Origin: Ostreococcus lucimarinus
Lineage: Eukaryota
Reading direction: 5' to 3' (one strand)
Assembly (NCBI GenBank): GCA_000092065.1
Contig: CP000597.1
Length of the DNA stretch: 64,000 nucleotides
The position numbers and the translations under genes are program-made. Below are positions 7,862 to 45,900 of the stretch, in pieces. The notes beneath the pieces were generated by a model that saw only the letters and a list, made by a program, of their open reading frames with translations, did not search any database and was not told the DNA's origin. Position 1 is the stretch's first letter, and every line of letters begins with the position of its first letter.

Positions 7862-8875
7862 CTACTCGGAGACGGCGCCGTCTTCGTCTTCGTCTTCGTC
7901 TTCGTCTTCGCCGTCTTCGACTCGATCGTCGCCGATTTTTACGCCGTGGCGCGATAAAATATCGATCGCGCACTCGGTCCATATTTGTTTTTTGTCGCCG
8001 TCGCTCACGAAGGCGAACAAGACGTCGTCGACGAGCTCGAACTCGTCCTCCGCGGCGCGCGCGTAGGCGAGCGCGCCGTCGAAGATGACGTCCAGCGCGC
8101 TCGCGCGTCTTCGAGCGCGAGCCTCGTTCGCGGCGGTTTCGTCGCTCAACTCTCTCACGACGAGCTTATCTATGATTCTACGCGCCAGTTTTTCAAATTC
8201 CGCCTTCAACGACGCCTCGACGGCGAGTCGATGCGCCTCGTACAGCGTCCTCGCGCGCGCCTCCCCTCCGCGCAATCTCGACACGTCGTCCCGACCCATG
8301 GGATCGCCCACCAAGTCCCGTCGAAACGCTTCGTCGTACGAACGCGCGTACGTCTTCACGCGTTCGGCGCACAACGCCTGAAACGCCGCCTCCGCCTCGT
8401 CGTCCAACAATCGCTCCTTCCGAAACCGCGCCTCGCGTTCATCCCTTCGCCGTCGTTCGCTCGCCTCCGACTCCCTCGCCCTCAACGCTCGCGCCCTCCG
8501 CGCGTCCGCGTCCGCCTCGTCTTCCCCCCGCGCCGCCCTTCGTCTCTTCTCCCCCTCCCTCTTCTCCTCCGCCGCGCGTCGCCGCAGCGCGTCGAACGCC
8601 GCGCGTCGCTCCGAGTGCGTCTTCAGCGCGCGAAACCGCGCGTCGCGCCGCATCTTCATCAGCGCGCGCTCCCAGCGCGCGTCCGCGAGTCCGTCGCCCA
8701 GCCGCGCGCGCACCATCGCCTCGAACGCCTCGACGTCCGCGCGCTTTTCCGTCGTCGCGCGTCGCCACTGCGCGTCGAAATTCGACGATTCGTCGTCGCG
8801 CGTCCCGTCGGTCGCGTCGTCGTCGTACGCGTCCGGGTCGAGGACGACGCCCGCGGCGTCGGCCGCCGTCGCCAT
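7862..8875 (-). CDS. FF-domain protein (PRP40 / transcription-elongation-regulator-like FF repeats, no WW domain seen)
   Basis: ATG at 8875. FF-like motifs: W..ALMKMRRDARFRALKTHSERRAAFDAL, and AAFQALCAERVKTYARSYDEAFRRDL. Acidic (ED)n tail encoded by a (TCTTCG)n run near 7880-7915. Confidence 0.6.
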   Translation of the reverse strand: MATAADAAGVVLDPDAYDDDATDGTRDDESSNFDAQWRRATTEKRADVEAFEAMVRARLGDGLADARWERALMKMRRDARFRALKTHSERRAAFDALRRRAAEEKREGEKRRRAARGEDEADADARRARALRARESEASERRRRDEREARFRKERLLDDEAEAAFQALCAERVKTYARSYDEAFRRDLVGDPMGRDDVSRLRGGEARARTLYEAHRLAVEASLKAEFEKLARRIIDKLVVRELSDETAANEARARRRASALDVIFDGALAYARAAEDEFELVDDVLFAFVSDGDKKQIWTECAIDILSRHGVKIGDDRVEDGEDEDEDEDEDGAVSE

Positions 8876-9071
8876 CGCCGCGGCGCGGAGTGGCGCGCGT
8901 CGCCGCCTCGTCACTGACACCCATACCCACACGTCCGAACACTCTCGATTTATTTATCGGCCCAACATCAAAAAAGCGTCGCTGGATCACGTACGCCGGT
9001 GCGCGCGAACGCGATGAAGGATTCAGGTCAACTCGCTTTTCCCGCGCGCGCGCACACGACGACGCGCGGCG

Positions 9072-11618
9072 ATGTCGCCGCCCGACGCGCGCGCGGGCGC
9101 GCGCCTGCGCGTCGCCACCATGTTCACCGGCGCCGGCGCGATCGACTACGGGTGCGTCGCGCGCGACGCGCGACGGCGCGACGGCGCGGGAAACGCGCGA
9201 AACGCAAAACCGAACGCCGAACGAACGCGAACGACGACGACGACGGATTCGACGCGCGACGACGACGACGACGACGCGCGACGACGCGAGATCGGGACGA
9301 CAAGGGGAGGATGGCGCGCGAAGACGCGAAGGCGCGCGCGACGGGAGCCCCGGGAGGACGAACGCGCGACTGACGAGACGCGAATTCGGGACGCGCGCGC
9401 GACCAGGCTGACGCGGGCGGGGCACGAGGTGACGCTGCAGTGCGAACGCGACGAGCGCGCGCGGGCGGTGCTGGACGCGCGATTTCAGGGCGTGCGACGG
9501 GCGAGGGAAGCGAGCGAGATCGAGGCGCTGCCGAGGGACGTGGACGTGCTGGTGTGCGGATTGATGACGAGGGAGTACGAGGGGTCGTGGCGAGAGTCGT
9601 GGACGAGAGACGGCGCGGCGGGGGCGCTGAAACACGCGCTGAGGCTGGGGGCGAGCGCGCGCGTGCCGTGGTTGGTGATCGAAGCGAGAGGGAAGATATT
9701 AGATCGTGGAGTCGATGGGAGCGAGGCGCCGTTGATTCATGAGTTTGTGAGCGAGCTGGAGCGAGCGGGGTACGCGTGGGCGCATCGCACGGTGGCGGCG
9801 GCGGCGTTCGGGGTGCCGGATGTCGCCGCGCGGGTGTTGCTCGTCGCCAGTAGATGCGGGGATCCGAGAGATGTGTTATTGACAGAAGACGCGGGGGCGT
9901 TGAAAGTCGATGCGAGGGATCCCGCGGATGAGCACACGTTTGTGTTTAATCGGCACCCCGAACGAGGGTTGTGCGCGTACGCCGACGTGTGCGAAGGATT
10001 TCATCCCGAGCCTGAGGCGTGCATGCTCACCGCCGCGGGTGGTTTGATGCCGCTCACCGTGCATGACGCTGAAAGATTGCAAGGATTGCCTCCGGGATGG
10101 ACGATGACGACGAGACCGAGCGTTCAAGGAAGTCAAGGGGAGGAGCTCACGGCGCGTTGGGACGCTTTGGCGAAGACGTACGGATGCGTCCCAAGTTCAT
10201 ATTGGCTGGGAACTCGGTTAGCGGACCCGTATGCTTTGAAATTTTCTGCCGATGCGGTTCCATTTAGAGAGTCTGTGCCGCACGCTTGGCCGGGGGCGGC
10301 GTACAACGTTGGACACGGGCGTGCGAGCGCCTTGTGCTCGCCGTTTGTCCGTGAAATCACGGAGTTGCCGTGTCTCGGCACGTTTATTTCCACGTCCTTT
10401 TTCGAAGGCGGTCCGCTGGTGCCGAAAGAGACCGCCGTGGCGTGCGCGCGCGTGCTTAGAGAGTCTGGCTGGGAGGTCCCTCCCCAGCTAGAGGCTTTGG
10501 AAAACGGCGAGGGAGAGATCGCCGTCGTCGAGCCGCGGGTGAAGAACGAACAGGCGCCTGCGGTCGAGCCACTGACGATAGCGACTCCGGCGGCACGGGC
10601 GCAGACCTCTCGCTACGATGAGTTTGTTTCAGCGCCACCGGCTTTGGTCGAACGCACGTTGCCTTTGATAAAGACGAAGAGCGGACATTTAATCGTCGAC
10701 CAAGACGAGGTGAAACGTTCGTCCAATTTTCCCATCGACATCGAGGCGAAGCGGTACAAGAGAAGCATCACGCCATCGTCGGCGGATATCGAGCCTGGAT
10801 CGCCAGGATCAACTCCGGGAACCATGACGTTCATCGCCGGCGTCGGTTTAGCTGCGCCAAGACGAAACCAGCTCGTTTGGGCCAAGCTCCCAGGTCATCC
10901 ATTTTGGCCGGGATTGCGAGCGGATTTGGACAAGGACTTCATCCCAGCGGATGCTCTCGCGATGGCGAGAGAAAACGAAGTACTCGTCGTGTTCTTTGGA
11001 GAAAATTCATTCGGTTGGCTGCGGGCGGAGCATTGCTTAGATTTTACCGAGCACTACGCATCGAAGAGTCGGGATCCGGCGAGGAACAAGGCGCGCTTCC
11101 AAGCGGCGGTGAAGCAAGCGAACGAGGAGCTGCAAATACGAGAGACGTTGCACGAGCGCGATAGATTACGTAAAATGGCGACGCAAAGTACTGCGCATAA
11201 GTTCCGTTCGCGCGGTGGCTCACCCATGCCCGAATTGAAGGGTTGTACGTGCAAGTCGTGCACGAGCATCTCCGCCGACGGTTCGGAATCGCCCAAGTGC
11301 ATACGTGTAGAAGCCGCCGAGAAGGCTAGTCGAGGTCACACAGGCGCCAAGCTTACGATTCAAGGTAGAACTATCATCGGTAAGCAAATTTTGGTGTTTT
11401 GGCCTCTCGACCGAGCGTCATATCCGGGTAAAATAGTCGATTACGATCCCGTCGAGCTTAGACATTGCGTCGAGTATGCCGAAGACGGCGTTAAAGAATT
11501 CTTGTCGCTGTGGAAGGAAGATGTAACATTACCGCCGGGTGAAAGACTCGGCCCGACTCTTCCAGAAGCAGATGAAGCTGGTGCTGATTTGTTGCTGGGA
11601 CTCACGGCGAGAGGATAA
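9072..11618 (+). CDS. DNA (cytosine-5) methyltransferase-fold protein with degenerate catalytic motifs, fused to PWWP and Tudor-like domains
   Basis: ATG at 9072. Motif I MFTGAGAIDYG. At the motif IV position, VDVLVCGLMTREY (9552-9578) has no Pro-Cys. Motif VI is IEAR (ENV-like). Motif VIII is FGVPDVAARVLLVAS (the Q.R.R pattern is degraded). Motif IX/X is AERLQGLPPGWT. PWWP: LVWAKLPGHPFWPG at 10869-10913. C-terminal SH3-fold/Tudor-like GKQILVFWPLDRASYPGKIVDYDP at about 11379-11530. Confidence 0.8.
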   Translation: MSPPDARAGARLRVATMFTGAGAIDYGCVARDARRRDGAGNARNAKPNAERTRTTTTTDSTRDDDDDDARRREIGTTRGGWRAKTRRRARREPREDERATDETRIRDARATRLTRAGHEVTLQCERDERARAVLDARFQGVRRAREASEIEALPRDVDVLVCGLMTREYEGSWRESWTRDGAAGALKHALRLGASARVPWLVIEARGKILDRGVDGSEAPLIHEFVSELERAGYAWAHRTVAAAAFGVPDVAARVLLVASRCGDPRDVLLTEDAGALKVDARDPADEHTFVFNRHPERGLCAYADVCEGFHPEPEACMLTAAGGLMPLTVHDAERLQGLPPGWTMTTRPSVQGSQGEELTARWDALAKTYGCVPSSYWLGTRLADPYALKFSADAVPFRESVPHAWPGAAYNVGHGRASALCSPFVREITELPCLGTFISTSFFEGGPLVPKETAVACARVLRESGWEVPPQLEALENGEGEIAVVEPRVKNEQAPAVEPLTIATPAARAQTSRYDEFVSAPPALVERTLPLIKTKSGHLIVDQDEVKRSSNFPIDIEAKRYKRSITPSSADIEPGSPGSTPGTMTFIAGVGLAAPRRNQLVWAKLPGHPFWPGLRADLDKDFIPADALAMARENEVLVVFFGENSFGWLRAEHCLDFTEHYASKSRDPARNKARFQAAVKQANEELQIRETLHERDRLRKMATQSTAHKFRSRGGSPMPELKGCTCKSCTSISADGSESPKCIRVEAAEKASRGHTGAKLTIQGRTIIGKQILVFWPLDRASYPGKIVDYDPVELRHCVEYAEDGVKEFLSLWKEDVTLPPGERLGPTLPEADEAGADLLLGLTARG

Positions 11619-13275: not shown

Positions 13276-16200
13276 ATGGAGTACGTCGACGCGTCAACGC
13301 TGCGAAAACTGTCGACGTCGGGTGACATCATCATCGTCGACGCGAGCTGGGCGATCGCGAACGACGTCGAGCGCGCGCGCGCGGCGCACGAGAGCGAGCG
13401 CATCCCGAACGCGACGTTTTATGATCACGACGAGGTGTGCGACCTGTCGTCGCCGCTGCCGCAGGCGTTCCCGCCGCGGGAAGCGTTCGCGCGAGGCGTC
13501 GGCGGCGGACTCGGGGCGACGAAGACGCGAGACGTGGCGATATACGCGAAAAACGGCGCGTCTTGCGCGGCGGAGGCGTGTGCGTTCGCGTTCTTGGAAT
13601 ATGGACATCGAGGACGGGTGATGGTGCTCAAGGGAGGGATGGAGGCGTGGAAGGCGGAAGGCTACGAGACGGAGGTCGGGGCGGAGACGATGCGCGAGCG
13701 GGCGACGGTGGAGTACGACGAAGACGGATCGAACGGAACGCGCGAGGGGAAGAAATCGGGATTCGTCGACGCGAAAGATTTGTTGACGAACTTGAGCACG
13801 CAGCGGTTGCAAGTGCTGGATTGCCGACAGTCGGAGGTGTTCGCGGGAGGGGCGAGAGACGCGGCGTACGTTCGGATTCAGGATCGAGCGATTCAGTTCG
13901 AGGGCTTCCGCGAAGGGCACATTCCGGGGGCGAAGAATTTACCGTACACGCGGTTGTTCGACGTCGCGGACGAAAACTTGCGAGAAATATTCGAGGGCGC
14001 GGGGTTGGACCTGTCCATGCCCGTGGCCGTGGTCGGTTCGGGGGGCGTCGACGCGGCGCCGATGGTGGCGTCAGCGCTCACGCGCGCCGGGTGCGCCGAC
14101 GCCGTGGTGCTAAAGAACGGTATGTGTGCGTGGTGCACGGCGCAAGGGAGCTCGTATCCGATGTCCATCGCTAGCACTTCTCCGCACGCTTCGCACAACG
14201 AAAAGCGCCTGATCGTTTGGGCGGTGACTCGATCGCGCGGCACCGCGCTCGAACGCTCGTTCTCTATGCACTCCGAGGCGATGGTCATGCACGAGTTACT
14301 CACGGAGCCGTGCTTGAAGGAGAATAATCCGGAAAATTACGCCAAGATTGTCAGTGGACAATCTGAACATCATGTCGCGAGCAGTGGATGCAGCTATGCG
14401 ACGATGTTAGAGGTGATGACGGCGGATTACTCCGCGCAAGGACGTCCATTCTTCTTCTCCAAAGAGCTGTCGTGTTACTTTGACTTGAAGCAAATGAAGT
14501 CGAGCTGGTTAAAACGGTTCACGCACGTGGTGTTGATTCGACAACCGACGGAAACGATAGAGTCATTTTATCGCGTCTCCATTGAACACAAGGAAGGGAG
14601 CTGCTATTATGATCCATCTGAGGCTGGATTTGCGGAAGCTTTTGGTATCGTAAACGCGTTGAAGCGTATCAATGCCAAGGTTATGGTCGTCGACGCTGAC
14701 GCGGATTTGCTGTCGCGACCAGAGGAGACGCTCCAAGAGATGTGTTCGCTGGCAAACGTGAACTTTGAGAGTTCGATGTTGTCATGGAAGCCCGCAGAGT
14801 TGTCAACGTGGATCAAATTTCGCGGTTGGCACGACGATGCGGCGAGATCGAGCGAGTTCAAAGCTGTCGACAAGGCACCGATGCAAAACGTACCGCCGGA
14901 ACTCTGCGTCGATGCGGCGAAGCAACAACCGTATTACGACGCCATAGGGTGGGAGCGCAAAGAAACTTCCAAGCGTTGGCCGTTCTTACGCCAGCTCACG
15001 AATCCGACGCATCGGTTCTCCGTCGTCGTGTGCGCATCGGATGAAGGCGCTATGGATATGTTCCCTCGTCTTGCCGCCGCGCGTCTGAGCGGCGTCAACT
15101 TGTACGAGTTCAAGCCGAGCGAAGTTGATCAGGCGATGAATAAATGCCCGTATATTTTCGACGACCCGATCGTTCTAGTGGGCGCACACGGACCCACGCT
15201 GCACATGGCCGAGGCACTGCGCGAGCGTGCGCAGAAGGACGGAACTTTGTGCATCGTACGCATAGTTCTCGTCGACGCTTCGGCGCATCGCGTTCGACCC
15301 GAAGGATTCGAGCACAGCTGGGTCCCAGAAGATTCGCTCAAGGATCAAACCAGCATGGACGAAGTTTTACAGAGTATTTTAGTCGACATCGAAACGGCAC
15401 AAAGCAAAAGTGCGAAGGAGATGGCGGATGTGAACGCGTTAGCCTCGACGACGACGTCGGCGGCGACGCACTGGCGCTCGGGTTTGGCGACGGCGTTGCA
15501 AGACGCTCGCTCCGACAAACCTTGCGTTACAGATGCGACGAGTACGTACACGATGAAAGAAGTGTACTCGCGTGCGTATCACGTCGCAGATATGCTCACC
15601 GAACGCGGTGCGCTGAACTCTCGTGTGGGTTTGTTTGTGCAAGCCTCCGCGGCGTCGGTGTGGTGCGCCATGGGTTCACTCTTGTGTGAATCTGTGTTTT
15701 GCGAAATCCCCGCGTGGTATCGCGACACCGACCTCGAACGCGTGTTGCGTTTGAACGAGTCGAAAGTCATAATAACTTCTCGTGATCTCGTGCAGTTCGT
15801 ACCCACCGCGTACAGAGACTTGGTCGTGGTCGTCGAGGACATGGAGTACGACGTCGACTTGAGCGGCGAGCTTCATCCGGCGCTGACGCGTCCTGACACT
15901 CCCGATGCCCCCGGGTTCTCCGTACTCACCAGTGGCACTACTGGTGTGAGTAAAATTCTGTGCTGTCCACAATCCGCGCTGACGGACTCGCAATCGGTCA
16001 TTGGGCCACACATGCGTGGCGACGATGTCATGGGGAGCTTTTGGGTCTATTATTACTTCTTCATTCCGCTCCTCGCTGGTCGCACGCTGAGCGTCATCCC
16101 GAACGATTTCTTCCTCAAGCCCCGAGAGTTGATTTCGTATGTGCGAAGTCAAAAAATGACCATGCTTTACCTCAGTCCGAGTATCCTGGAGAGCTGTTTG

Positions 16201-19200
16201 TTGCACTGCACGCCGCAAGAGTTCTCCGAAGGGATGCAAGACGTGCACACAATTTTATTGACCGGTGAACGCGTGCGAAGAGAGACTCGTATGCTTCTCG
16301 CCGAGCGTCTCACCCGTACGCGTTTGATTGACGTGTACAGCACGAACGAAACGGGTGATTTGGCGATATCTGATTACGGTGGAGCGTTCTTCCTGCGTGA
16401 GGGCACGCAAGCGCGCGTGTTGACGGATGACGGCAAGCCAGCTGTTCGCGGCACCGTCGGCCAGCTTCACGTTAAAAAGAGTGGTTTGCTCGTTGGCTTC
16501 TACACGGATAACGGTTACGCGAAGATCGAAAGCGAGTGGTATCCAACTGGCGATCTCGTTCGTTGGTTAGGTCGCAACAGGTTGACTTTTGAATCTCGTC
16601 AAAAGTCGGCATACGTCAAGATTCGTGGCTTCAAGGTTTCGCCGGTCATGGTACAAGACGTCATGCTCAAGATGCCAGTGATTAAACAGGCCATCGTGAG
16701 CACGATCGGACAGTCTGACATTGACCAGCAACTCGTCGCTGCTATCTCCTTCAACAACGGTGCGCGAGCGAAGGAGAGCGAATTGCGGGCACACATGGCA
16801 GCGCACGTGCCGCACTACATGATTCCGTCGACGTTTTACGACCTCGGCAACAAAGTGTCCACAGCTACCTCTGGTAAAGTGGTCAAGCTTGATGTCGATA
16901 GGCTGGACAAAATCACCGATAGTAACGAAGTGCAACTGACTACAAAGCAAAATGAGGTCGTGGAGGTGTGGCGCCAAGTGTTAGATCAACCGGAGAAGAA
17001 CTTCGCGGCGACGGAGAGCTTTTTCGACTACGGCGGAAGCTTGAAATTTGTTGAGCTTGCGGCGGCACTTTCGAAGAAATGGGGGGTGAGTTTGACGGTT
17101 CCCGAAGTCATCGCCAAGCCGACGCTGGCTGAGATGGCCCTACTTATGGAAGATTATAAAAACGCCAAGTTTGAGCCCGAGGTCGAAGTCGCAAAGTATG
17201 ACTTTTCCGAGTTCAAGCGAGCGCCAAAGAAGAATACTGCGGCGGGCAAGAAGAATATTCTCCTTACCGGCGCTACTGGTTTTCTTGGTGCGTACTTGCT
17301 TCAAGAACTCGCCGCAAGCGATGAAATTGATCAGATTTACGCTATCGTGCGCGCAAAAGACAAGTTTGCGGCGCAAAATCGCGTGCTCGATGTCTTCCGT
17401 AAGCGCGGGCTCACGTTTACCGATCAAATAACGCAAAAGACAACGTTCATGTGTGGTGACATGTCAATGCCGTTGTACGACATACCCGAAGCCACGCTCG
17501 CGCCAGTTTTGGAAGTGATTGACGTTGTCATCAGCGGTGGCGCGGAAGTCAATATGGTGAAGTCTTATTCAGCGTTAGAAAAGGTAAACGTCGGAGGAAC
17601 GTTCAACGGGCTCGAGATCGCGTCGCGCGCCGGCGCTAGACACGTTCTCATTTCCACGCAGTATCCGCTTCCGGGTGAAGTTTCAACGGGATACCGACGA
17701 AGTAAAGAGGTCGCGGAGATGCTATGCGAGCGCGCGCAGAAAGAAGTTGGCGTTGAGTCGGCCGTTTTATTGTTTGGTGACATCGGTATTTCTCGTGCCG
17801 TCGGTTCGCTCGCGCCCGACGATGACTACATCGTCATCTTCCTCCGCGCCTGCCTCGCGACAGGTTTCTTCCCACGTACCGAGTGGGCTGTTAGTATCTT
17901 GTGCGTCGATGATTGCGTGAAGATGCTCACGTCAATCTCATTATCCGGCCAAGTCGATCGTTATGCGTTTGACGGCGTCGCGCGTGAAGTAAAGGGTAAA
18001 CTGATGCCGTTTTCTCAACTTTACGAATGGCTCTCCAAGGAGTACGCGTTGCAGCTGTGCAGCTACGATGGCTGGCTCAATGCAGTTAAGGCTGGCGCCG
18101 CCGAAGGCAACACGATCCTTCAGCGCGCGCTCCTGACGATTGATTCCATGGAAGTCGAACTCAGAGCGGAGGGTGAGCACTTCAACTCGCAGGCGGCGTC
18201 AGATGCGCTCTTCTCCGTGGACGAAGCGTGGGGTAAGAACCTCGTCGGTGCGCTAATTCTCGAACTCTACAGCGAACTTCAAAATGACGACAAAGACACC
18301 ACCATCGGCTTCGCCGCGTTGGCGCAAGGCGAAGATTTGGTTCCGTTCAAGTATCGCCTCCCAGACATGACCCCGACGTCTGTCGAGGTGAAGGTCGAGT
18401 ACTGCGGCTTGTGCGGAAGTGATGATCACTTGATCGTGGGTGACTATGGTGAATATGCGGTGTGGCCGCAAGTTTGCGGACACGAAGTCGTGGGTACGGT
18501 CACCCAAGTTGGCACGGCGGTGACGACGCTAAAAGCCGGTCAACGCGTTGGCGTCGGCTGGCAGAGCTCGTCTTGCCACGATTGCGAGTGGTGCGCGCGA
18601 GGCGATGAGCAGCTGTGCTCTAGTGTCGGTTGTACATGCTGCGAAGGTAACAAAGGTGGTTTCGCCGATCGCATGCGCTTAAACGACTCGCAATTCTGCT
18701 ACAAAATCCCAGACGCGCTGTCTTCCGCGGAAGTCGCGCCGTTGCTATGCGGTGGCCAAACCGTTTGGACGCCTTTGAACGAGCAAACGAAGTCTAGCGA
18801 TCGCGTCGGCATTCTCGGCCTCGGTGGACTCGGTCACATGGCCATCAAGTTCGCCAAGGCGCTCGGTCGAGAAGTCACCGCGATTTCGTCTTCGGCGTCG
18901 AAGCGCGCCGACGCCCTGTCGCACGGCGCGTCGCGCTTTTTGGTGCACACCAACCAAGAAGAGATGGATGCCGCCGCCTCATCGCTCGACTTCATCCTAG
19001 TCACCATCGCCACGAATAAAGAGGTGGACTTCGCGAAGTTTTTCCCCTTGTTACGCCCGCGTGGGACGATTTGTTTCGTCGGCATGTGCCCTCCCATCCA
19101 AGCCGACGTCTTCACTCTCGGCTTCACCATGAACAACATCACAACGAGTAACACCGGGGGCAAAAAGGACATGGTTCAAATGCTCGAATTCTGCGCCCGA

Positions 19201-19374
19201 CACAAGATCGGCGCCTCCGTCGCCGTGAGTCCGCTCAGCGAGATCAACACCGCCATCACGGCTTTGCGCACGGGCGAATCCCACTTCCGACACGTCCTCG
19301 TCAACGACGTCTCGAGCGGTAGTCAACACCGTCGCATGGCCAGCGCCTTCGGCAGCGGCTTCCCTTCCCGTTAA
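13276..19374 (+). CDS. Multidomain megasynthase: rhodanese x2 - sulfotransferase-like - adenylation - carrier - thioester reductase - Zn alcohol dehydrogenase
   Basis: ATG at 13276 and a single 2,032-codon ORF. Rhodanese pair spans about 13276-14150. Sulfotransferase-like PAPS motifs: VTRSRGTAL (about 14220) and VVLIRQPTETIESFYR (about 14527-14575). A-domain cores: TSGTTGVSK (15928-15954), YSTNETGD, YPTGDL, KIRGFKV, SGKVVKLD. Carrier FFDYGGSLKF with Ser codon at 17038-17040. R domain LLTGATGFLGAYL (about 17260) and YRRSK (about 17691). ADH motifs GLCGSDDH (about 18405), CGHEVVG, GLGGLGH (about 18817). Confidence 0.9.
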   Translation: MEYVDASTLRKLSTSGDIIIVDASWAIANDVERARAAHESERIPNATFYDHDEVCDLSSPLPQAFPPREAFARGVGGGLGATKTRDVAIYAKNGASCAAEACAFAFLEYGHRGRVMVLKGGMEAWKAEGYETEVGAETMRERATVEYDEDGSNGTREGKKSGFVDAKDLLTNLSTQRLQVLDCRQSEVFAGGARDAAYVRIQDRAIQFEGFREGHIPGAKNLPYTRLFDVADENLREIFEGAGLDLSMPVAVVGSGGVDAAPMVASALTRAGCADAVVLKNGMCAWCTAQGSSYPMSIASTSPHASHNEKRLIVWAVTRSRGTALERSFSMHSEAMVMHELLTEPCLKENNPENYAKIVSGQSEHHVASSGCSYATMLEVMTADYSAQGRPFFFSKELSCYFDLKQMKSSWLKRFTHVVLIRQPTETIESFYRVSIEHKEGSCYYDPSEAGFAEAFGIVNALKRINAKVMVVDADADLLSRPEETLQEMCSLANVNFESSMLSWKPAELSTWIKFRGWHDDAARSSEFKAVDKAPMQNVPPELCVDAAKQQPYYDAIGWERKETSKRWPFLRQLTNPTHRFSVVVCASDEGAMDMFPRLAAARLSGVNLYEFKPSEVDQAMNKCPYIFDDPIVLVGAHGPTLHMAEALRERAQKDGTLCIVRIVLVDASAHRVRPEGFEHSWVPEDSLKDQTSMDEVLQSILVDIETAQSKSAKEMADVNALASTTTSAATHWRSGLATALQDARSDKPCVTDATSTYTMKEVYSRAYHVADMLTERGALNSRVGLFVQASAASVWCAMGSLLCESVFCEIPAWYRDTDLERVLRLNESKVIITSRDLVQFVPTAYRDLVVVVEDMEYDVDLSGELHPALTRPDTPDAPGFSVLTSGTTGVSKILCCPQSALTDSQSVIGPHMRGDDVMGSFWVYYYFFIPLLAGRTLSVIPNDFFLKPRELISYVRSQKMTMLYLSPSILESCLLHCTPQEFSEGMQDVHTILLTGERVRRETRMLLAERLTRTRLIDVYSTNETGDLAISDYGGAFFLREGTQARVLTDDGKPAVRGTVGQLHVKKSGLLVGFYTDNGYAKIESEWYPTGDLVRWLGRNRLTFESRQKSAYVKIRGFKVSPVMVQDVMLKMPVIKQAIVSTIGQSDIDQQLVAAISFNNGARAKESELRAHMAAHVPHYMIPSTFYDLGNKVSTATSGKVVKLDVDRLDKITDSNEVQLTTKQNEVVEVWRQVLDQPEKNFAATESFFDYGGSLKFVELAAALSKKWGVSLTVPEVIAKPTLAEMALLMEDYKNAKFEPEVEVAKYDFSEFKRAPKKNTAAGKKNILLTGATGFLGAYLLQELAASDEIDQIYAIVRAKDKFAAQNRVLDVFRKRGLTFTDQITQKTTFMCGDMSMPLYDIPEATLAPVLEVIDVVISGGAEVNMVKSYSALEKVNVGGTFNGLEIASRAGARHVLISTQYPLPGEVSTGYRRSKEVAEMLCERAQKEVGVESAVLLFGDIGISRAVGSLAPDDDYIVIFLRACLATGFFPRTEWAVSILCVDDCVKMLTSISLSGQVDRYAFDGVAREVKGKLMPFSQLYEWLSKEYALQLCSYDGWLNAVKAGAAEGNTILQRALLTIDSMEVELRAEGEHFNSQAASDALFSVDEAWGKNLVGALILELYSELQNDDKDTTIGFAALAQGEDLVPFKYRLPDMTPTSVEVKVEYCGLCGSDDHLIVGDYGEYAVWPQVCGHEVVGTVTQVGTAVTTLKAGQRVGVGWQSSSCHDCEWCARGDEQLCSSVGCTCCEGNKGGFADRMRLNDSQFCYKIPDALSSAEVAPLLCGGQTVWTPLNEQTKSSDRVGILGLGGLGHMAIKFAKALGREVTAISSSASKRADALSHGASRFLVHTNQEEMDAAASSLDFILVTIATNKEVDFAKFFPLLRPRGTICFVGMCPPIQADVFTLGFTMNNITTSNTGGKKDMVQMLEFCARHKIGASVAVSPLSEINTAITALRTGESHFRHVLVNDVSSGSQHRRMASAFGSGFPSR

Positions 19375-36950: not shown

Positions 36951-39900
36951 ATGCGGCTCGACGACGGCGACGACGCGCGACGAAGGGACGCGCGCGCGGT
37001 TCGAGCGCGCGCGACGCGGACGCCGACGCGCGCGGCGACCACGCGCGGCGATGTCGTCGACGCCGCTGCCGCCGATGATGACATCGACGACGACGCCGTC
37101 GCGCGACCGGACGCGACGCGACGACGACGACGCGACGACGACGCGACGACGACGACGCGCGATGATGAGACGACGCGCGCGCGAGAGGGCGCGAGCGGAC
37201 GCCGGCGAGCGCGGGAACGAGGGAGAGCGACGAGGCGTCGTCGACGGCTCGGGACGGCGGCGGCGGCGGCGGCGACGGCGGCGTTGGCGGCGACGGTCGA
37301 GCGCGTCGGCGTGGACGCGTCGACGGCGCTCACGAAGGGGGTGGCGAGGAATGGTTTCGTGTCGTCGAGCGGGTATAAGTACTATAAGGTGAATGTGGCG
37401 TGCGTGGAGGCGGCGCAGCCGCTGACGTTGGAGCTGACGACGAGCAACGGGGACGCGAACTTGTACGTGTCTCGATCGGCGCAGCCGACGACTTCGTCGT
37501 ACGAACAGCGGAGCGTGAACGTTGGAAATGCGTTGGATTCGGTGACGATCACGAGTCCGGTGAATGGGTACTATTACGTGAGCGTGTACGGCGCGCTGTC
37601 CAGCACGTACAAGCTTCGAGCGCTCACGACGATGTTTACCGGGAAACATCCGTGCACGGGATTTCGAATCACCGATAGCGACGTCTCGAGCGTTGGCTCG
37701 GGATCTGGAAATCAGTTCATACTGCAAGAAGCGCTCACCGCGAGCGCGGCGGCGGGATTCACCGCGGATGTGTCCGTCGACGGCGACGTCATCCTCGGCG
37801 ACGCGTACACCGATTCGGTGACGGCGAAAGGAGAGCTCAAGCTCGGCGTGACGGACAGTACGTACTACGCCATCACGCGACAATCGCCGAGCGCACCGAG
37901 CAGCAACCCGGGCGGCGCTTTGTCGATCGTCGGCGCGAACGCGACCTATCAGGGGGGATCGGTAAAGATTCTCGGCGGAACGGGCGGTTCGGGGGCGGGC
38001 GGCGACGTCGTGATCGAGGCGGGGTCGGCGTCTGGCGGCAACGGTGGCGATTTGAAGTTACGTGGCGGCACGTCGAACTCAGGAACGGGCGGCGACGTCG
38101 TCATAGATGCCGGAGATAGCACGACACAAGCATCTTCGTACGAGGGCATCATTCACATAGGTCCAACTTCTGCGTCGTTTGTGCGCGTCGGCGAGAGTTC
38201 AAATAAGCAAGTTCAAACCGATATTTTCGGCGACTTGACGGTGCACGGAAATCTCTTGACAACGAATGATGTGGTGTACGCGAACAGCTACACGAGTTAC
38301 GTGCAGGTTTCAACCTCTCAAGACGGCATGTTTCATCAAGAAGTGCGCGCGCCAAAGATTACAGGTCTGGACGCGGAGGACATCACGGGCACTCCAACGA
38401 GCACGTTGACTTTAGACGCTGGCATGCGAGGGAGTCAGCAACACGTCGTGATCGCTCCGAGCGAGGCAACGGCGGTTTACATAGGTAGCAGCACATCCAC
38501 GATTCCGGTCTCGATAAGGCAAGGCGCGAACGCAGGAGACGTGCGAGTGCACGCTGATGGCAGCGGCGCGCTGTCCGTGACTTCGGCCGCAGGGCAGGAC
38601 CTGACGCTCGCGTCCGGCGACGACGTGGTGGTGACCACCGCGGCGAGTAAGACGCTCGCGCTGAAGCAGGACTCGACGAGCATTTTGAGCTGGGACGCGG
38701 CCGGCGCTGTGACTGTGAACTCCGTGAGCGGGCAGGACCTGACGCTGAGCACGGGCGGTAGCGCGGCCGTGACTGTGGACTCGACCGGGCAGGTGGGCAT
38801 CGGGACGACGACGCCGGGGAAGACGCTGGACGTCACCGGGACGGCGCGCGTGAGTGGCGCGACGACGCTGAGTAGCACGCTTGACGTGACTGGCGCTACG
38901 ACGCTCGCATCCGTGGGCGTGACCGGTGCGGCCACCGTCGGCGGGACTTTAGGTGTGACTGGCGCTACGACGCTCGCATCCGTGGGCGTGACCGGCGCGG
39001 CCACCGTCGGCGGGACTTTAGGTGTGACTGGCGCTACGACGCTCGCATCCGTGGGCGTGACCGGCGCGGCCACCGTCGGCACGACGCTCGGCGTGACTGG
39101 CGCTACGACGCTCACCGGCGACGTGACGATGAGCAACGACTTGACCGTGAGCGGTGCGCTTACTGTGACATCTGATGCCGCTGTGAGTTTGACCTCTGCA
39201 AGTGGTTCGGACGTGAGCTTGACGAGCGCCGGTACGGGTGGCATCGTGTTGACGTCGACGGACGACATCACGCTCGATGCTGCCGATGATGTGACGATCG
39301 ATGCCGCCGGTGCTTTGTCTTTGGAGCAGGGCGGGACGAGTATTTTGAGCTGGACCGACACCGGCGCTGTGACTTTGAACTCCTTAGGCGGGCAGACCCT
39401 GAGCGTGTCGAGCCTCAGCTCGGCCGGGAACGCGGGCGCCGTGAGCGTGTCCGGCGGCACGACGACTGGGACGTCCTCGAACACCGGCGGCGACTTGACG
39501 CTGCAATCTGGCGGCGCGCCCGCTGGCAGCGTGAACGGTGACGTTCTGGTGGACTCGGCCACTGGTCTAGGCACCGCCGGCTCGATCACGCTTCGCCAGG
39601 GGGTGGGCGGTGAGCGTGTTTCTGTGGACGCGAACGGCGCCGTGAGTCTGGACACGCACTCCGGGCAGGACCTGACGCTGAGCACGGGCGGTAGCGCGGC
39701 CGTGACTGTGGACTCGACCGGGCAGGTGGGCATCGGGACGACGACGCCGGGGAAGACGCTGGACGTCACCGGGACGGCGCGCGTGAGTGGCGCGACGACG
39801 CTGAGTAGCACGCTTGGCGTGACTGGCGCTACGACGCTCGCATCCGTGGGCGTGACCGGTGCGGCCACCGTCGGCGGGACTTTAGGTGTGACTGGCGCTA

Positions 39901-42900
39901 CGACGCTCGCATCCGTGGGCGTGACCGGCGCGGCCACCGTCGGCACGACGCTCGGCGTGACTGGCGCTACGACGCTCACCGGCGACGTGACGATGAGCAA
40001 CGACTTGACCGTGAGCGGTGCGCTTACTGTGACATCTGATGCCGCTGTGAGTTTGACCTCTGCAAGTGGTTCGGACGTGAGCTTGACGAGCGCCGGTACG
40101 GGTGGCATCGTGTTGACGTCGACGGACGACATCACGCTCGATGCTGCCGATGATGTGACGATCGATGCCGCCGGTGCTTTGTCTTTGGAGCAGGGCGGGA
40201 CGAGTATTTTGAGCTGGACCGACACCGGCGCTGTGACTTTGAACTCCTTAGGCGGGCAGACCCTGAGCGTGTCGAGCCTCAGCTCGGCCGGGAACGCGGG
40301 CGCCGTGAGCGTGTCCGGCGGCACGACGACTGGGACGTCCTCGAACACCGGCGGCGACTTGACGCTGCAATCTGGCGGCGCGCCCGCTGGCAGCGTGAAC
40401 GGTGACGTTCTGGTGGACTCGGCCACTGGTCTAGGCACCGCCGGCTCGATCACGCTTCGCCAGGGGGTGGGCGGTGAGCGTGTTTCTGTGGACGCGAACG
40501 GCGCCGTGAGTCTGGACACGCACTCCGGGCAGGACCTGACGCTGAGCACGGGCGGTAGCGCGGCCGTGACTGTGGACTCGACCGGGCAGGTGGGCATCGG
40601 GACGACGACGCCGGGGAAGACGCTGGACGTCACCGGGACGGCGCGCGTGAGTGGCGCGACGACGCTGAGTAGCACGCTTGGCGTGACTGGCGCTACGACG
40701 CTCGCATCCGTGGGCGTGACCGGTGCGGCCACCGTCGGCGGGACTTTAGGTGTGACTGGCGCTACGACGCTCGGCGGGACTTTAGGTGTGACTGGCGCTA
40801 CGACGCTCGCATCCGTGGGCGTGACCGGCGCGGCCACCGTCGGCACGACGCTTGGCGTGACTGGCGCTACGACGCTCGGCGGGACTTTAGGTGTGACTGG
40901 CGCTACGACGCTCGCATCCGTGGGCGTGACCGGCGCGGCCACCGTCGGCACGACGCTCGGCGTGACTGGCGCTACGACGCTCGCATCTGTGGGCGTGACC
41001 GGTGCGGCCACCGTCGGCGGGACTTTAGGTGTGACTGGCGCTACGACGCTCACCGGCGACGTGACGATGAGCAACGACTTGACCGTGAGCGGTGCGCTTA
41101 CTGTGACATCTGATGCCGCTGTGAGTTTGACCTCTGCAAGTGGTTCGGACGTGAGCTTGACGAGCGCCGGTACGGGTGGCATCGTGTTGACGTCGACGGA
41201 CGACATCACGCTCGATGCTGCCGATGATGTGACGATCGATGCCGCCGGTGCTTTGTCTTTGGAGCAGGGCGGGACGAGTATTTTGAGCTGGACCGACACC
41301 GGCGCTGTGACTTTGAACTCCTTAGGCGGGCAGACCCTGAGCGTGTCGAGCCTCAGCTCGGCCGGGAACGCGGGCGCCGTGAGCGTGTCCGGCGGCACGA
41401 CGACTGGGACGTCCTCGAACACCGGCGGCGACTTGACGCTGCAATCTGGCGGCGCGCCCGCTGGCAGCGTGAACGGTGACGTTCTGGTGGACTCGGCCAC
41501 TGGTCTAGGCACCGCCGGCTCGATCACGCTTCGCCAGGGGGTGGGCGGTGAGCGTGTTTCTGTGGACGCGAACGGCGCCGTGAGTCTGGACACGCACTCC
41601 GGGCAGGACCTGACGCTGAGCACGGGCGGTAGCGCGGCCGTGACTGTGGACTCGACCGGGCAGGTGGGCATCGGGACGACGACGCCGGGGAAGACGCTGG
41701 ACGTCACCGGGACGGCGCGCGTGAGTGGCGCGACGACGCTGAGTAGCACGCTTGGCGTGACTGGCGCTACGACGCTCGCATCCGTGGGCGTGACCGGTGC
41801 GGCCACCGTCGGCGGGACTTTAGGTGTGACTGGCGCTACGACGCTCGGCGGGACTTTAGGTGTGACTGGCGCTACGACGCTCGCATCCGTGGGCGTGACC
41901 GGTGCGGCCACCGTCGGCGGGACTTTAGGTGTGACTGGCGCTACGACGCTCGGCACGACGCTCGGCGTGACTGGCGCTACGACGCTCGCATCCGTGGGCG
42001 TGACCGGCGCGGCCACCGTCGGCACGACGCTCGGCGTGACTGGCGCTACGACGCTCACCGGCGACGTGACGATGAGCAACGACTTGACCGTGAGCGGTGC
42101 GCTTACTGTGACATCTGATGCCGCTGTGAGTTTGACCTCTGCAAGTGGTTCGGACGTGAGCTTGACGAGCGCCGGTACGGGTGGCATCGTGTTGACGTCG
42201 ACGGACGACATCACGCTCGATGCTGCCGATGATGTGACGATCGATGCCGCCGGTGCTTTGTCTTTGGAGCAGGGCGGGACGAGTATTTTGAGCTGGACCG
42301 ACACCGGCGCTGTGACTTTGAACTCCTTAGGCGGGCAGACCCTGAGCGTGTCGAGCCTCAGCTCGGCCGGGAACGCGGGCGCCGTGAGCGTGTCCGGCGG
42401 CACGACGACTGGGACGTCCTCGAACACCGGCGGCGACTTGACGCTGCAATCTGGCGGCGCGCCCGCTGGCAGCGTGAACGGTGACGTTCTGGTGGACTCG
42501 GCCACTGGTCTAGGCACCGCCGGCTCGATCACGCTTCGCCAGGGGGTGGGCGGTGAGCGTGTTTCTGTGGACGCGAACGGCGCCGTGAGTCTGGACACGC
42601 ACTCCGGGCAGGACCTGACGCTGAGCACGGGCGGTAGCGCGGCCGTGACTGTGGACTCGACCGGGCAGGTGGGCATCGGGACGACGACGCCGGGGAAGAC
42701 GCTGGACGTCACCGGGACGGCGCGCGTGAGTGGCGCGACGACGCTGAGTAGCACGCTTGGCGTGACTGGCGCTACGACGCTCGGCGGGACTTTAGGTGTG
42801 ACTGGCGCTACGACGCTCGCATCCGTGGGCGTGACCGGCGCGGCCACCGTCGGCACGACGCTCGGCGTGACTGGCGCTACGACGCTCGCATCCGTGGGCG

Positions 42901-45900
42901 TGACCGGCGCGGCCACCGTCGGCACGACGCTCGGCGTGACTGGCGCTACGACGCTCACCGGCGACGTGACGATGAGCAACGACTTGACCGTGAGCGGTGC
43001 GCTTACTGTGACATCTGATGCCGCTGTGAGTTTGACCTCTGCAAGTGGTTCGGACGTGAGCTTGACGAGCGCCGGTACGGGTGGCATCGTGTTGACGTCG
43101 ACGGACGACATCACGCTCGATGCTGCCGATGATGTGACGATCGATGCCGCCGGTGCTTTGTCTTTGGAGCAGGGCGGGACGAGTATTTTGAGCTGGACCG
43201 ACACCGGCGCTGTGACTTTGAACTCCTTAGGCGGGCAGACCCTGAGCGTGTCGAGCCTCAGCTCGGCCGGGAACGCGGGCGCCGTGAGCGTGTCCGGCGG
43301 CACGACGACTGGGACGTCCTCGAACACCGGCGGCGACTTGACGCTGCAATCTGGCGGCGCGCCCGCTGGCAGCGTGAACGGTGACGTTCTGGTGGACTCG
43401 GCCACTGGTCTAGGCACCGCCGGCTCGATCACGCTTCGCCAGGGGGTGGGCGGTGAGCGTGTTTCTGTGGACGCGAACGGCGCCGTGAGTCTGGACACGC
43501 ACTCCGGGCAGGACCTGACGCTGAGCACGGGCGGTAGCGCGGCCGTGACTGTGGACTCGACCGGGCAGGTGGGCATCGGGACGACGACGCCGGGGAAGAC
43601 GCTGGACGTCACCGGGACGGCGCGCGTGAGTGGCGCGACGACGCTGAGTAGCACGCTTGGCGTGACTGGCGCTACGACGCTCGCATCCGTGGGCGTGACC
43701 GGTGCGGCCACCGTCGGCGGGACTTTAGGTGTGACTGGCGCTACGACGCTCGCATCCGTGGGCGTGACCGGCGCGGCCACCGTCGGCACGACGCTCGGCG
43801 TGACTGGCGCTACGACGCTCGCATCCGTGGGCGTGACCGGCGCGGCCACCGTCGGCACGACGCTTGGCGTGACTGGCGCTACGACGCTCGGCGGGACTTT
43901 AGGTGTGACTGGCGCTACGACGCTCGCATCCGTGGGCGTGACCGGCGCGGCCACCGTCGGCACGACGCTCGGCGTGACTGGCGCTACGACGCTCGCATCT
44001 GTGGGCGTGACCGGTGCGGCCACCGTCGGCGGGACTTTAGGTGTGACTGGCGCTACGACGCTCACCGGCGACGTGACGATGAGCAACGACTTGACCGTGA
44101 GCGGTGCGCTTACTGTGACATCTGATGCCGCTGTGAGTTTGACCTCTGCAAGTGGTTCGGACGTGAGCTTGACGAGCGCCGGTACGGGTGGCATCGTGTT
44201 GACGTCGACGGACGACATCACGCTCGATGCTGCCGATGATGTGACGATCGATGCCGCCGGTGCTTTGTCTTTGGAGCAGGGCGGGACGAGTATTTTGAGC
44301 TGGACCGACACCGGCGCTGTGACTTTGAACTCCTTAGGCGGGCAGACCCTGAGCGTGTCGAGCCTCAGCTCGGCCGGGAACGCGGGCGCCGTGAGCGTGT
44401 CCGGCGGCACGACGACTGGGACGTCCTCGAACACCGGCGGCGACTTGACGCTGCAATCTGGCGGCGCGCCCGCTGGCAGCGTGAACGGTGACGTTCTGGT
44501 GGACTCGGCCACTGGTCTAGGCACCGCCGGCTCGATCACGCTTCGCCAGGGGGTGGGCGGTGAGCGTGTTTCTGTGGACGCGAACGGCGCCGTGAGTCTG
44601 GACACGCACTCCGGGCAGGACCTGACGCTGAGCACGGGCGGTAGCGCGGCCGTGACTGTGGACTCGACCGGGCAGGTGGGCATCGGGACGACGACGCCGG
44701 GGAAGACGCTGGACGTCACCGGGACGGCGCGCGTGAGTGGCGCGACGACGCTGAGTAGCACGCTTGACGTGACTGGCGTTACGACGCTCGCATCCGTGGG
44801 CGTGACCGGTGCGGCCACCGTCGGCACGACGCTCGGCGTGACTGGCGCTACGACGCTCGCATCCGTGGGCGTGACCGGTGCGGCCACCGTCGGCGGGACT
44901 TTAGGTGTGACTGGCGCTACGACGCTCGGCACGACGCTCGGCGTGACTGGCGCTACGACGCTCGCATCCGTGGGCGTGACCGGCGCGGCCACCGTCGGCA
45001 CGACGCTCGGCGTGACTGGCGCTACGACGCTCACCGGCGACGTGAGCGTCGGGACTTCCTCGGCTTTGAGTTTTGGTTCTGCAACCCGGCAGATGATCAA
45101 CTTATATGGAACAAACAACGCCATCGGCGTGCAATCGTCCACGATGTATTTTCGTAGTGCTTATAACTTTGCCTTTTTTGAAGGCGGCGTGTACACCAAC
45201 ACAGAGCTCGATCCGGGTTCGGGTGGCACTTTGCGCATGATGATTCAGAAAACCACGGGCAACGTCGGTATCGGGACGGCGAGTCCAGATTATGAACTCG
45301 ACGTGGTAGGCGATATCAACTTTTCTGGGAATCTCTATCAGGGTGGTTCGCTGTTTGCCTCCCCCTGGACGGAGAGCAGCGGTAACGTGTATCGCAGTAG
45401 CGGTAACGTCGGCATCGGGCTGACGAATCCGACCTACAATCTGCACGTTGCTGGAACGGGGCGCGTTAGTACGACGCTATCGGTGGGTCAAGATTTAACC
45501 ATCGACACGGCTGGCGACTTGAACTTTGCGGCGACGCATCGTCAGATGATCAACCTCCGCGTCGGCGCCGAGGGTTTCGGGATCGGGACGCAGATGGACA
45601 CGACGTACTTTCGCTCTCCGGGCCACTTTGCGTTCTACGAAGACGGAACGCACAGCACCACTGACTTGGACGCGAACGGTGGCACCGCGCGTCTGGTGAT
45701 CAGGAGCGGCGGGAAGGTGGGCATCGGGCGGACGAATCCGAGCTATGATCTCGACGTGGTAGGCGATATCAACTTTTCTGGGAATCTCTATCAGGGCGGT
45801 TCTCTGTTCCCGTCCCCCTCCCCCTGGACGGAGAGCGGCAGTAACGTGTATCGTAGTAGCGGTAACGTCGGCATCGGGCTGACGAATCCGAGCTACAAAC

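Follow-up and report, generated by a model that had tools for sequence, protein, structure and literature searches.

A 64,000-nucleotide stretch of the Ostreococcus lucimarinus genome (contig CP000597.1 of GenBank assembly GCA_000092065.1; referred to as the window) carries, at positions 9072 - 11618 of its forward strand, a gene for a conserved paralogue of the cytosine C5-methyltransferases that is predicted, with good confidence, to be incapable of C5 methylation. As judged by alignment, the residues required for C5 chemistry are absent in the window gene and in every orthologue found, whereas a paralogue of the same layout, XP_001417930, retains them and is encoded in the same genome. The window protein is proposed to be a non-catalytic member of the green-algal lineage of DNA methyltransferases (DNMTs) named ChloroDNMTs, one that partners, activates or targets XP_001417930; taken whole, this statement is given an even chance.

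The open reading frame (ORF) on which the initial annotation was based is real, having 848 codons from an ATG and matching XP_001422099. Motifs were assigned in it by three routes: an alignment of 80 sequences that includes intact relatives, a profile comparison with M.HhaI, and a hidden Markov model (HMM) alignment of about 170 relatives, these being the sequences fetched from 3706 that a profile, run exhaustively against 1.84 billion representatives, returned at E <= 0.001. The 80-sequence profile aligns to M.HhaI residues 8 - 172 (E 1.8e-33). The family's own profile, searched against the PDB at E <= 0.001, matched no methyltransferase and only the Tudor structure 7de9, so that intact intermediates were needed for the link to M.HhaI. 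In M.HhaI, Cys81 is the nucleophile, and Glu119 and Arg165 hold the flipped cytosine. The window protein has Met80-Thr81 in place of the catalytic Pro80-Cys81 of motif IV, which reads VLVCGLMTREY and contains no Pro-Cys. In motif VI (IEA for ENV) Glu119 is kept and Asn120-Val121 is replaced by Ala-Arg, and in motif VIII (GVPDVAARV for GxPQxRxR) Gln161 is replaced by Asp and Arg163 by Ala, with Arg165 kept as Arg169, a residue invariant in 80 of the 80 aligned sequences. These departures had been named in the initial annotation, and all three alignments, that to M.HhaI included, agree on them. The ERLQGLPPGW stretch, there taken as the motif IX/X region, is likewise present, as part of an ERLQGFPxxW block that is retained in Pro-Cys-less and intact relatives alike; the register of motif X itself is uncertain, MAFFT aligning GNAV with A-K-T-Y and not with GCVP just downstream, and its G-N is absent in either register. 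Motif I (FTGAGAIDYG, positions 9123 - 9151 plus base 9407) keeps F18-G20-G22 and motif II keeps E40, and at the motif III position Glu61 stands where M.HhaI has Asp. Of five motif features of an active C5-methyltransferase, four (motifs IV, VI, VIII and X) are therefore lacking, and only the cofactor pocket is found.

The loss extends through the whole clade to which the window protein belongs, comprising Ostreococcus, Micromonas and one further lineage. Every member reads M-x-x-E-x-E-G-S-W-R-E-S-W / I-E-A / P-D-x-x-x-R-V, with the exception of the divergent protein P0089, whereas GFPC / ENV / Q-R-R-x-R is found in about 110 relatives outside the clade. All Ostreococcus and Micromonas members share the GSWRESW portion without variation. 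In P0089 it is TGWRESW (the three motifs being ELETGWRESW / VVDCG / PDDRGRL), and even the motif VI Glu is replaced; the contig of this protein has a GC content of 52%, its linkers are Asn-rich and of low complexity, its gene lacks the intron that follows motif I, and it may come from Bathycoccus or another lineage of the Mamiellophyceae. Members of the clade have T, A, D or S where the Cys would be, so that there is no conserved replacement nucleophile.

A catalytic set displaced to another part of the protein was looked for and none is conserved: the sole Pro-Cys dipeptide, in ELPCLG (aa 348 - 349), is Pro-Thr in Micromonas, and Cys77 is Ala or Val there, no nearby Cys being conserved. These observations also bear on whether the protein could still be an enzyme, one that binds S-adenosylmethionine (SAM) through motifs I - III and uses a different nucleophile or acts on a different atom or substrate, or could serve as a SAM sensor. 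The retained FxGxG of motif I, Glu of motif II and acidic residue of motif III would suit such a role, as would the invariant new EGSWRESW loop at the catalytic-loop position. However, besides the varying residue at the Cys81 position and the fate of the other cysteines, there is no DPPY-type motif of N-methyltransferases, the G-N of motif X is lost, and F18 varies; an enzymatic or sensory role of this kind is considered quite improbable.

The C5-methyltransferase fold, first proposed from motif I and the ERLQGLPPGW stretch, was borne out. The spliced product matches PF00145 with 35 bits (E 1.3e-8) against a curated cut-off of 22 and has the two-domain fold of the C5-methyltransferases. An AlphaFold2 model computed from the 80-sequence alignment has a pLDDT of 92.8 and a pTM of 0.91, and replaced a model from a 22-sequence, family-only alignment that was unusable (pLDDT 50.1). 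The top 50 Foldseek matches are C5-methyltransferases only, with M.HaeIII and M.HhaI at E ~1e-12.

Recovery of the PF00145 match depended on the gene structure, as the unspliced product scores 17 bits and falls below the cut-off. The 120-aa low-complexity insert that the initial annotation placed after motif I does not belong to the protein: a 255-nt intron stands there, in frame and free of stops, and so reads as an insert of 85 codons. Its excision yields IDYG|LTRAGHEV, where homologues read LDYGLTQAGHE, the downstream boundary being CTGAC...CAG|G CTG ACG CGG GCG GGG CAC, and in all Micromonas-type homologues motif I continues uninterrupted (...FSGCGVLDYGLTQAGHEI...). The same Gly codon is split by a GT-AG intron on contigs of two further Ostreococcus lineages, of 193 nt in L005 and 346 nt in L006, and both introns contain stop codons when read through. 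A metagenomic strain with 99.7% identity over 2651 nt differs at 7 sites, 6 of which, including a 1-nt deletion, lie inside the intron; the seventh and sole exonic change is synonymous (GGC to GGT). In another strain (P0326) a different insert peptide arises through compensating frameshifts. The annotated proteins of O. tauri (XP_022840525.1, 765 aa) and O. mediterraneus (A0A7S0KK65, 762 aa) show no break at the 9151|9407 junction and keep the N-terminus of the window protein; the accession range of the latter presumably derives from transcriptome assemblies. The stop-bearing introns, the strain differences and the contiguous orthologues speak against a lineage-specific coding insertion, an explanation rejected here. 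The row XP_001422099_Ostreococcus_113-298 in the supplementary alignment of PMC10538959 is identical to the window ORF (LTRAGHEVTLQCERDERARAVLDARFQGVRRAREASEI...VLVCGLMTREYEGSWRESW), and its numbering fits the unspliced 848-aa product; the public gene model therefore reads through the intron and should be corrected, whereas the O. tauri and O. mediterraneus entries are spliced correctly.

A neighbor-joining (NJ) tree recovers the Pro-Cys-less clade as monophyletic, on a long stem and with a bootstrap of 100%, and in the published maximum-likelihood (ML) tree (PMC10538959) it has support of 99.7/100 and is sister (96.2/97) to a Pro-Cys-containing green-algal clade. Among three Ostreococcus orthologues, the ratio of nonsynonymous to synonymous substitution (dN/dS, Nei-Gojobori) is 0.12 - 0.25 for the methyltransferase-like parts, 0.05 - 0.07 for the PWWP and Tudor domains and 0.19 - 0.40 for the linker, values that are approximate because dS (0.8 - 2) is near saturation. 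The methyltransferase-like domain is under purifying selection and is less constrained than the reader domains. The loss of catalytic residues throughout a clade that stays under purifying selection, as seen here, is a mark of the functional class that includes DNMT3L and DRM3.

It might be argued that the gene is decaying into a pseudogene or stems from faulty annotation, with the missing motifs in an unrecognized exon or with the ORF arising by chance in GC-rich DNA. Such DNA does yield long spurious ORFs (e.g., an antisense ORF of 398 aa at 8439 - 9635), and one intron was indeed misread as coding. Nonetheless, intact orthologous ORFs with invariant blocks are found in no fewer than three species groups of Ostreococcus, in Micromonas and in one further lineage, dN/dS is well under 1, the sequence that replaces motif IV is itself invariant at the protein level, and the UniRef entry of O. 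mediterraneus (A0A7S0KK65) carries the spliced sequence. Decay or artefact is hardly credible in the face of these findings.

The presence of an intact counterpart in the same genome gives the loss its context. O. lucimarinus encodes XP_001417930, with GFPCNDCS (...VVAGFPCNDCSCEN...), beside XP_001422099, and M. pusilla similarly carries both forms, the intact XP_003056440 and the orthologue of the window protein, XP_003064391. A near-identical full-length form of XP_001417930 (P0233, 820 aa) contains FSGIGG, GFPC, ENV and PHKRRRV, followed by a PWWP-like domain, the Cys cluster and a Tudor domain. The window protein is collinear with it: one stretch of 360 aa is 34% identical (E 7e-48), and another of 239 aa, spanning PWWP, Cys cluster and Tudor, is 26% identical (E 3e-15). 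The equivalent intact gene on a Micromonas-type contig (L001) reads, after removal of two introns, FSGIGG...GFPCP|DVS...ENV...QRRRR, then a PWWP-like domain and Tudor; the first of these introns appears to start with GC rather than GT (CAG|GCGCGT). On the same contig (1548 - 2810 and 5364 - 8970) a zf-4CXXC_R1 (CDCA7-type) gene is located ~2.5 kb upstream of the intact ChloroDNMT paralogue, CDCA7 being linked to DNA-methylation maintenance. Intact proteins that combine PF00145 and PF00855, with or without Tudor, are found in Trebouxia, Chlorella, Tetradesmus, Cymbomonas, Pedinophyceae and Klebsormidium. The window protein shares with the ChloroDNMTs (XP_001417930, P0233) the placement of PWWP C-terminal to the methyltransferase domain, often with Tudor in addition, as well as full-length homology, the methyltransferase-PWWP-Cys cluster-Tudor order and a green-algal distribution. 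Typical ChloroDNMTs keep GFPC, ENV, Q/H-x-R-R-R and GNAV, whereas the Pro-Cys-less clade keeps none of these and has instead the EGSWRESW loop and a C-terminal peptide of its own; it also lacks the Cys-rich insert (C..EC...ECYEC) that intact paralogues have in the target-recognition region, between motifs VIII and IX. Because architecture and collinearity are shared over the whole length, the two genes are attributed to a whole-gene duplication, which predates the Ostreococcus-Micromonas split.

Both C-terminal reader domains of the initial annotation are present. The PWWP matches PF00855 with 50.6 - 50.8 bits (cut-off 25.6), with weak matches to the MSH6, NSD3 and HDGF structures, and extends beyond the 10869 - 11060 first assigned (Table 1). 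The Tudor-like domain, originally placed at about 11379 - 11530, corresponds to unspliced aa 764 - 814 (nt 11361 - 11513), which phmmer matches to the 66-residue Tudor of 7de9 (E 2.6e-6); searched against the PDB, the family profile likewise gives 7de9 as its sole match (E 1.1e-9). The Tudor assignment comes from these PDB sequence matches, Pfam finding no match in the C-terminal 122 aa. Between the two domains lies a conserved cluster of four cysteines that may bind zinc and that occurs in the intact paralogues as well. The Tudor domain of 7de9 is that of Arabidopsis RDM15/PDS5C, an H3K4me1 reader in which the methyl group sits in a cage of W616, Y623 and Y641, the monomethyl-ammonium is gripped by a clamp of D643 and D645, and H3R2 is bound by E647 (PMC8184781). 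The counterparts in the window protein are W, Y, Y, D, V and E, respectively. Five of the six are thus identical, whereas Val at the position of D645 leaves the two-Asp clamp incomplete, and the host protein is unrelated to RDM15. The window protein is very likely a methyl-lysine reader, to judge from these residues, though its specificity is not legible from sequence.

With two such domains the protein could be a stand-alone chromatin reader or adaptor, in which the dead fold would be only a DNA-binding or scaffolding module. Conservation of the PWWP is higher in the window protein (50.8 bits) than in intact paralogues (30 bits in P0094, and no PF00855 match on record for P0233), the clade has lost the Cys-rich insert of the target-recognition region, and RDM15-type Tudor domains recruit diverse machineries. 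The Pro-Cys-less clade also has a conserved C-terminal peptide of the form [AV]DLL[LM]GL, a candidate docking motif that is absent from the intact paralogues P0233 and P0234. However, the entire fold is held at a dN/dS of ~0.2 with E119 and R169 kept, which suggests more than a spacer, and the two dead DNMT paralogues that are well studied each act together with an active sister. As a stand-alone reader the protein would recruit something other than the intact ChloroDNMT (e.g., DNMT5, a remodeller or repair factors), or would compete with the active paralogue for the same marks; a role of this kind is considered less likely than not, yet a serious alternative.

Action together with the intact paralogue is the reading that is preferred here, in view of the DRM3 and DNMT3L precedents and of the presence of XP_001417930 in the same species; the logic of a dead paralogue serving an active one is established for DRM3 with DRM2 and for DNMT3L with DNMT3A/B (PMC2965745). 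On this account, duplication before the divergence of Ostreococcus and Micromonas would have produced two proteins of one layout (methyltransferase fold, PWWP, Cys cluster, Tudor), of which one copy would have retained the catalytic set GFPC / ENV / Q(H)xRRR. The window copy would have lost Pro-Cys, the N-V of ENV, the Q and first R of motif VIII and the G-N of motif X, and gained the invariant EGSWRESW loop at the former catalytic-loop site, while retaining the fold, the cofactor-pocket residues (F/Y/L18, G20, G22, E40 and an acidic residue 61), E119, R169 and both reader modules. Such a protein would not methylate cytosine C5; it would dock on chromatin through PWWP and Tudor and on DNA through the dead methyltransferase fold and, once docked, would serve XP_001417930 as partner, activator or targeting subunit. 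For the partnership taken separately, the likelihood is put at nearly even or slightly below.

A further and rather improbable idea is that the dead fold was exapted as a base-flipping DNA reader, because E119 and R165 and most of the cofactor pocket are kept and because the invariant, Trp-rich EGSWRESW loop could insert into DNA. If true, the protein would read the methylation state of DNA (or unmethylated or hemimethylated CpG) together with histone methylation, coupling the nucleosome-linker methylation of Mamiellales to chromatin marks, and would represent a new DNMT-derived class of 5mC/CpG readers.

Several points weigh against the preferred reading as a whole. Partnership with XP_001417930 is proposed by analogy with other dead paralogues, and the dead and intact genes are not adjacent in the window. 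Motifs I and II are kept, unlike the degraded cofactor motifs of DNMT3L and DRM3, and some cofactor-dependent function may persist. Conversely, residue 18 is F, Y or L within the clade, which argues for relaxed rather than preserved SAM binding, and the functionality of the pocket cannot be judged from a model whose 80-sequence alignment is dominated by active enzymes. PWWP domains have a three-residue aromatic cage, which by alignment to the MSH6/HDGF type is His, Trp, Phe here in place of the usual Tyr/Phe, Trp, Phe; like the missing second Asp of the monomethyl-lysine clamp in Tudor, this weighs against assuming a particular histone specificity. The NJ tree recovers the grouping with green-algal DNMTs at a bootstrap below 50, its deep nodes being unsupported, and the deep placement of the clade comes from the published ML tree, the collinearity with P0233 over the whole length being in its favour.

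Among known systems, the comparison made in the initial annotation was with DNMT3L, said to differ in its domain set. The analogy holds insofar as an intact paralogue of the same architecture co-occurs; the domain set is not different, however, when the window protein is compared with its own active paralogue. DNMT3L is truncated and does not bind SAM; it has neither a PWWP nor motifs IX - X nor a target-recognition region, whereas the window protein, of independent origin, keeps a full-length fold, motifs I - III and both reader domains. The likeness is that of a non-catalytic DNMT paralogue with a histone-reading module, retained beside active enzymes that it stimulates and targets (PMC2965745). 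As the dead copy shares the PWWP-Tudor set with its own active paralogue, DRM3 of Arabidopsis is, by analogy, the closest counterpart and nearer than DNMT3L. DRM3 represents a conserved paralogue clade without the Pro-Cys of motif IV and without motif IX/X residues, keeps the accessory-domain layout of its active sister DRM2, and co-occurs with it (PMC2965745); the algal clade has likewise shed Pro-Cys, N-V, Q/R and G-N and, as in its sister, PWWP and Tudor are retained. The two differ in that DRM3 belongs to the DRM/DNMT3 lineage with rearranged motifs and has UBA accessory domains, whereas the window protein, assigned to the ChloroDNMTs, has the canonical motif order and PWWP, Cys cluster and Tudor. 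In addition, a requirement of DRM3 for methylation was shown genetically (PMC2965745), whereas for the window protein a role in methylation is proposed. The animal de novo methyltransferases DNMT3A and DNMT3B also combine a PWWP reader with the C5-methyltransferase fold, but their PWWP is N-terminal rather than C-terminal, and the window protein has no ADD domain and is catalytically degenerate. Two published studies judge the PWWP-methyltransferase association to have arisen independently of DNMT3 (PMC3457860, PMC12344493).

Table 1. Features of the DNMT-like gene, in window positions.
Feature	Position	Strand	Details	Basis
Whole gene	9072..11618	+	2 exons and 1 intron; spliced product 763 aa	ORF, splice model, XP_001422099 match
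Exon 1	9072..9151	+	Start codon, strand beta-1 (RLRVATMF), motif I (FTGAGAIDYG); last 2 bases are the first two of Gly27	Splice model
Intron	9152..9406	+	Phase 2, 255 nt; GTGCGT 5' end, CTGAC branch-like site at 9370-9374, CAG 3' end	
Exon 2	9407..11618	+	Includes stop codon	
C5-methyltransferase-like domain and family-specific C-terminal extension	9105..10511	+	Spliced aa 12-395; intron-interrupted	PF00145 (35 bits), AlphaFold2, Foldseek
Motif IV position	9558..9602	+	GLMTREYEGSWRESW; spliced aa 78-92	Three alignments
Motif VI position	9675..9692	+	VIEARG	Alignments
Motif VIII position	9807..9836	+	FGVPDVAARV	Alignments
Conserved ERLQGFPxxW block ahead of motif X	10062..10103	+	HDAERLQGLPPGWT	Alignments
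PWWP	10869..11132	+	Spliced aa 515-602 (unspliced 600-687); core LVWAKLPGHPFWPG ... VVFFGENSFGW	Pfam PF00855
Four-Cys cluster between PWWP and Tudor	11241..11315	+	GCTCKSC-x12-C-IRVEA	Alignments
Single Tudor, RDM15/PDS5C type	11361..11525	+		phmmer against PDB 7de9, family profile
C-terminal peptide, candidate docking motif	11583..11603	+	ADLLLGL	Conserved in Pro-Cys-less clade only

The surroundings of the gene are partly conserved. Its upstream neighbour, in divergent orientation, encodes a 356-aa FF-domain protein (7862 - 8932, reverse strand) at 139 nt from the DNMT-like start codon, a synteny kept in L006. A 2032-aa ORF at 13276 - 19374 (forward strand) combines two rhodanese domains, a sulfotransferase, AMP-binding and PP-binding domains, an NAD_binding_4 terminal reductase and a zinc alcohol-dehydrogenase module; this unusual megaenzyme, resembling a nonribosomal peptide synthetase (NRPS), adjoins the DNMT-like gene in both L005 and L006 as well. 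Elsewhere in the window, a 1858-aa four-repeat cation channel of the voltage-gated type (47164 - 52740, reverse strand; Ion_trans 566 bits in 4 stretches) lies in the stretch of lowest GC (~0.50, against 0.60 - 0.70 elsewhere). A 3364-aa ORF (36951 - 47045, forward strand) has a PPC (pre-peptidase C-terminal) domain as its sole Pfam match, and a 2221-aa antisense ORF (38477 - 45142) is probably a by-product of GC-rich sequence.

The gene was already known and catalogued as a DNMT. XP_001422099 is classed as 'Chlorophyta DNMT6-like' (Funabiki et al. 2023, PMC10538959), the lineage is named 'ChloroDNMTs' and described as one that 'often contains a PWWP domain' (a 2025 paper in Molecular Biology and Evolution, PMC12344493), and a PWWP at the C-terminus was noted in 2012 for two 'putative DNA-methyltransferases' of O. 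tauri (PMC3457860); the searchable text of the three makes no mention of catalytic loss. A literature search for 'ChloroDNMT' or an inactive DNMT paralogue in Ostreococcus returned no description of it either, such absence being no proof. Of the O. tauri database entries for the orthologue, one is named 'PWWP' and another 'site-specific DNA-methyltransferase'. Recognition of the gene as a conserved dead paralogue appears to be new.

In summary, comparative surveys count as a DNA methyltransferase a protein that is almost certainly not one, so that the DNMT repertoires of Mamiellales are over-counted by one. The methylome of these algae is unusual, with DNMT5-dependent methylation of nucleosome linkers, and neither DNMT1 nor DNMT3 is known from them. 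The dead and intact genes are an obvious candidate pair for a de novo methylation module in Mamiellales, for which O. tauri, being genetically manipulable, offers a tractable system. If the proposed function is correct, this would be the third independent case of a dead DNMT paralogue, after DNMT3L in mammals and DRM3 in angiosperms, and would suggest that de novo DNA methylation has repeatedly come to rely on an enzyme paired with a dead twin.

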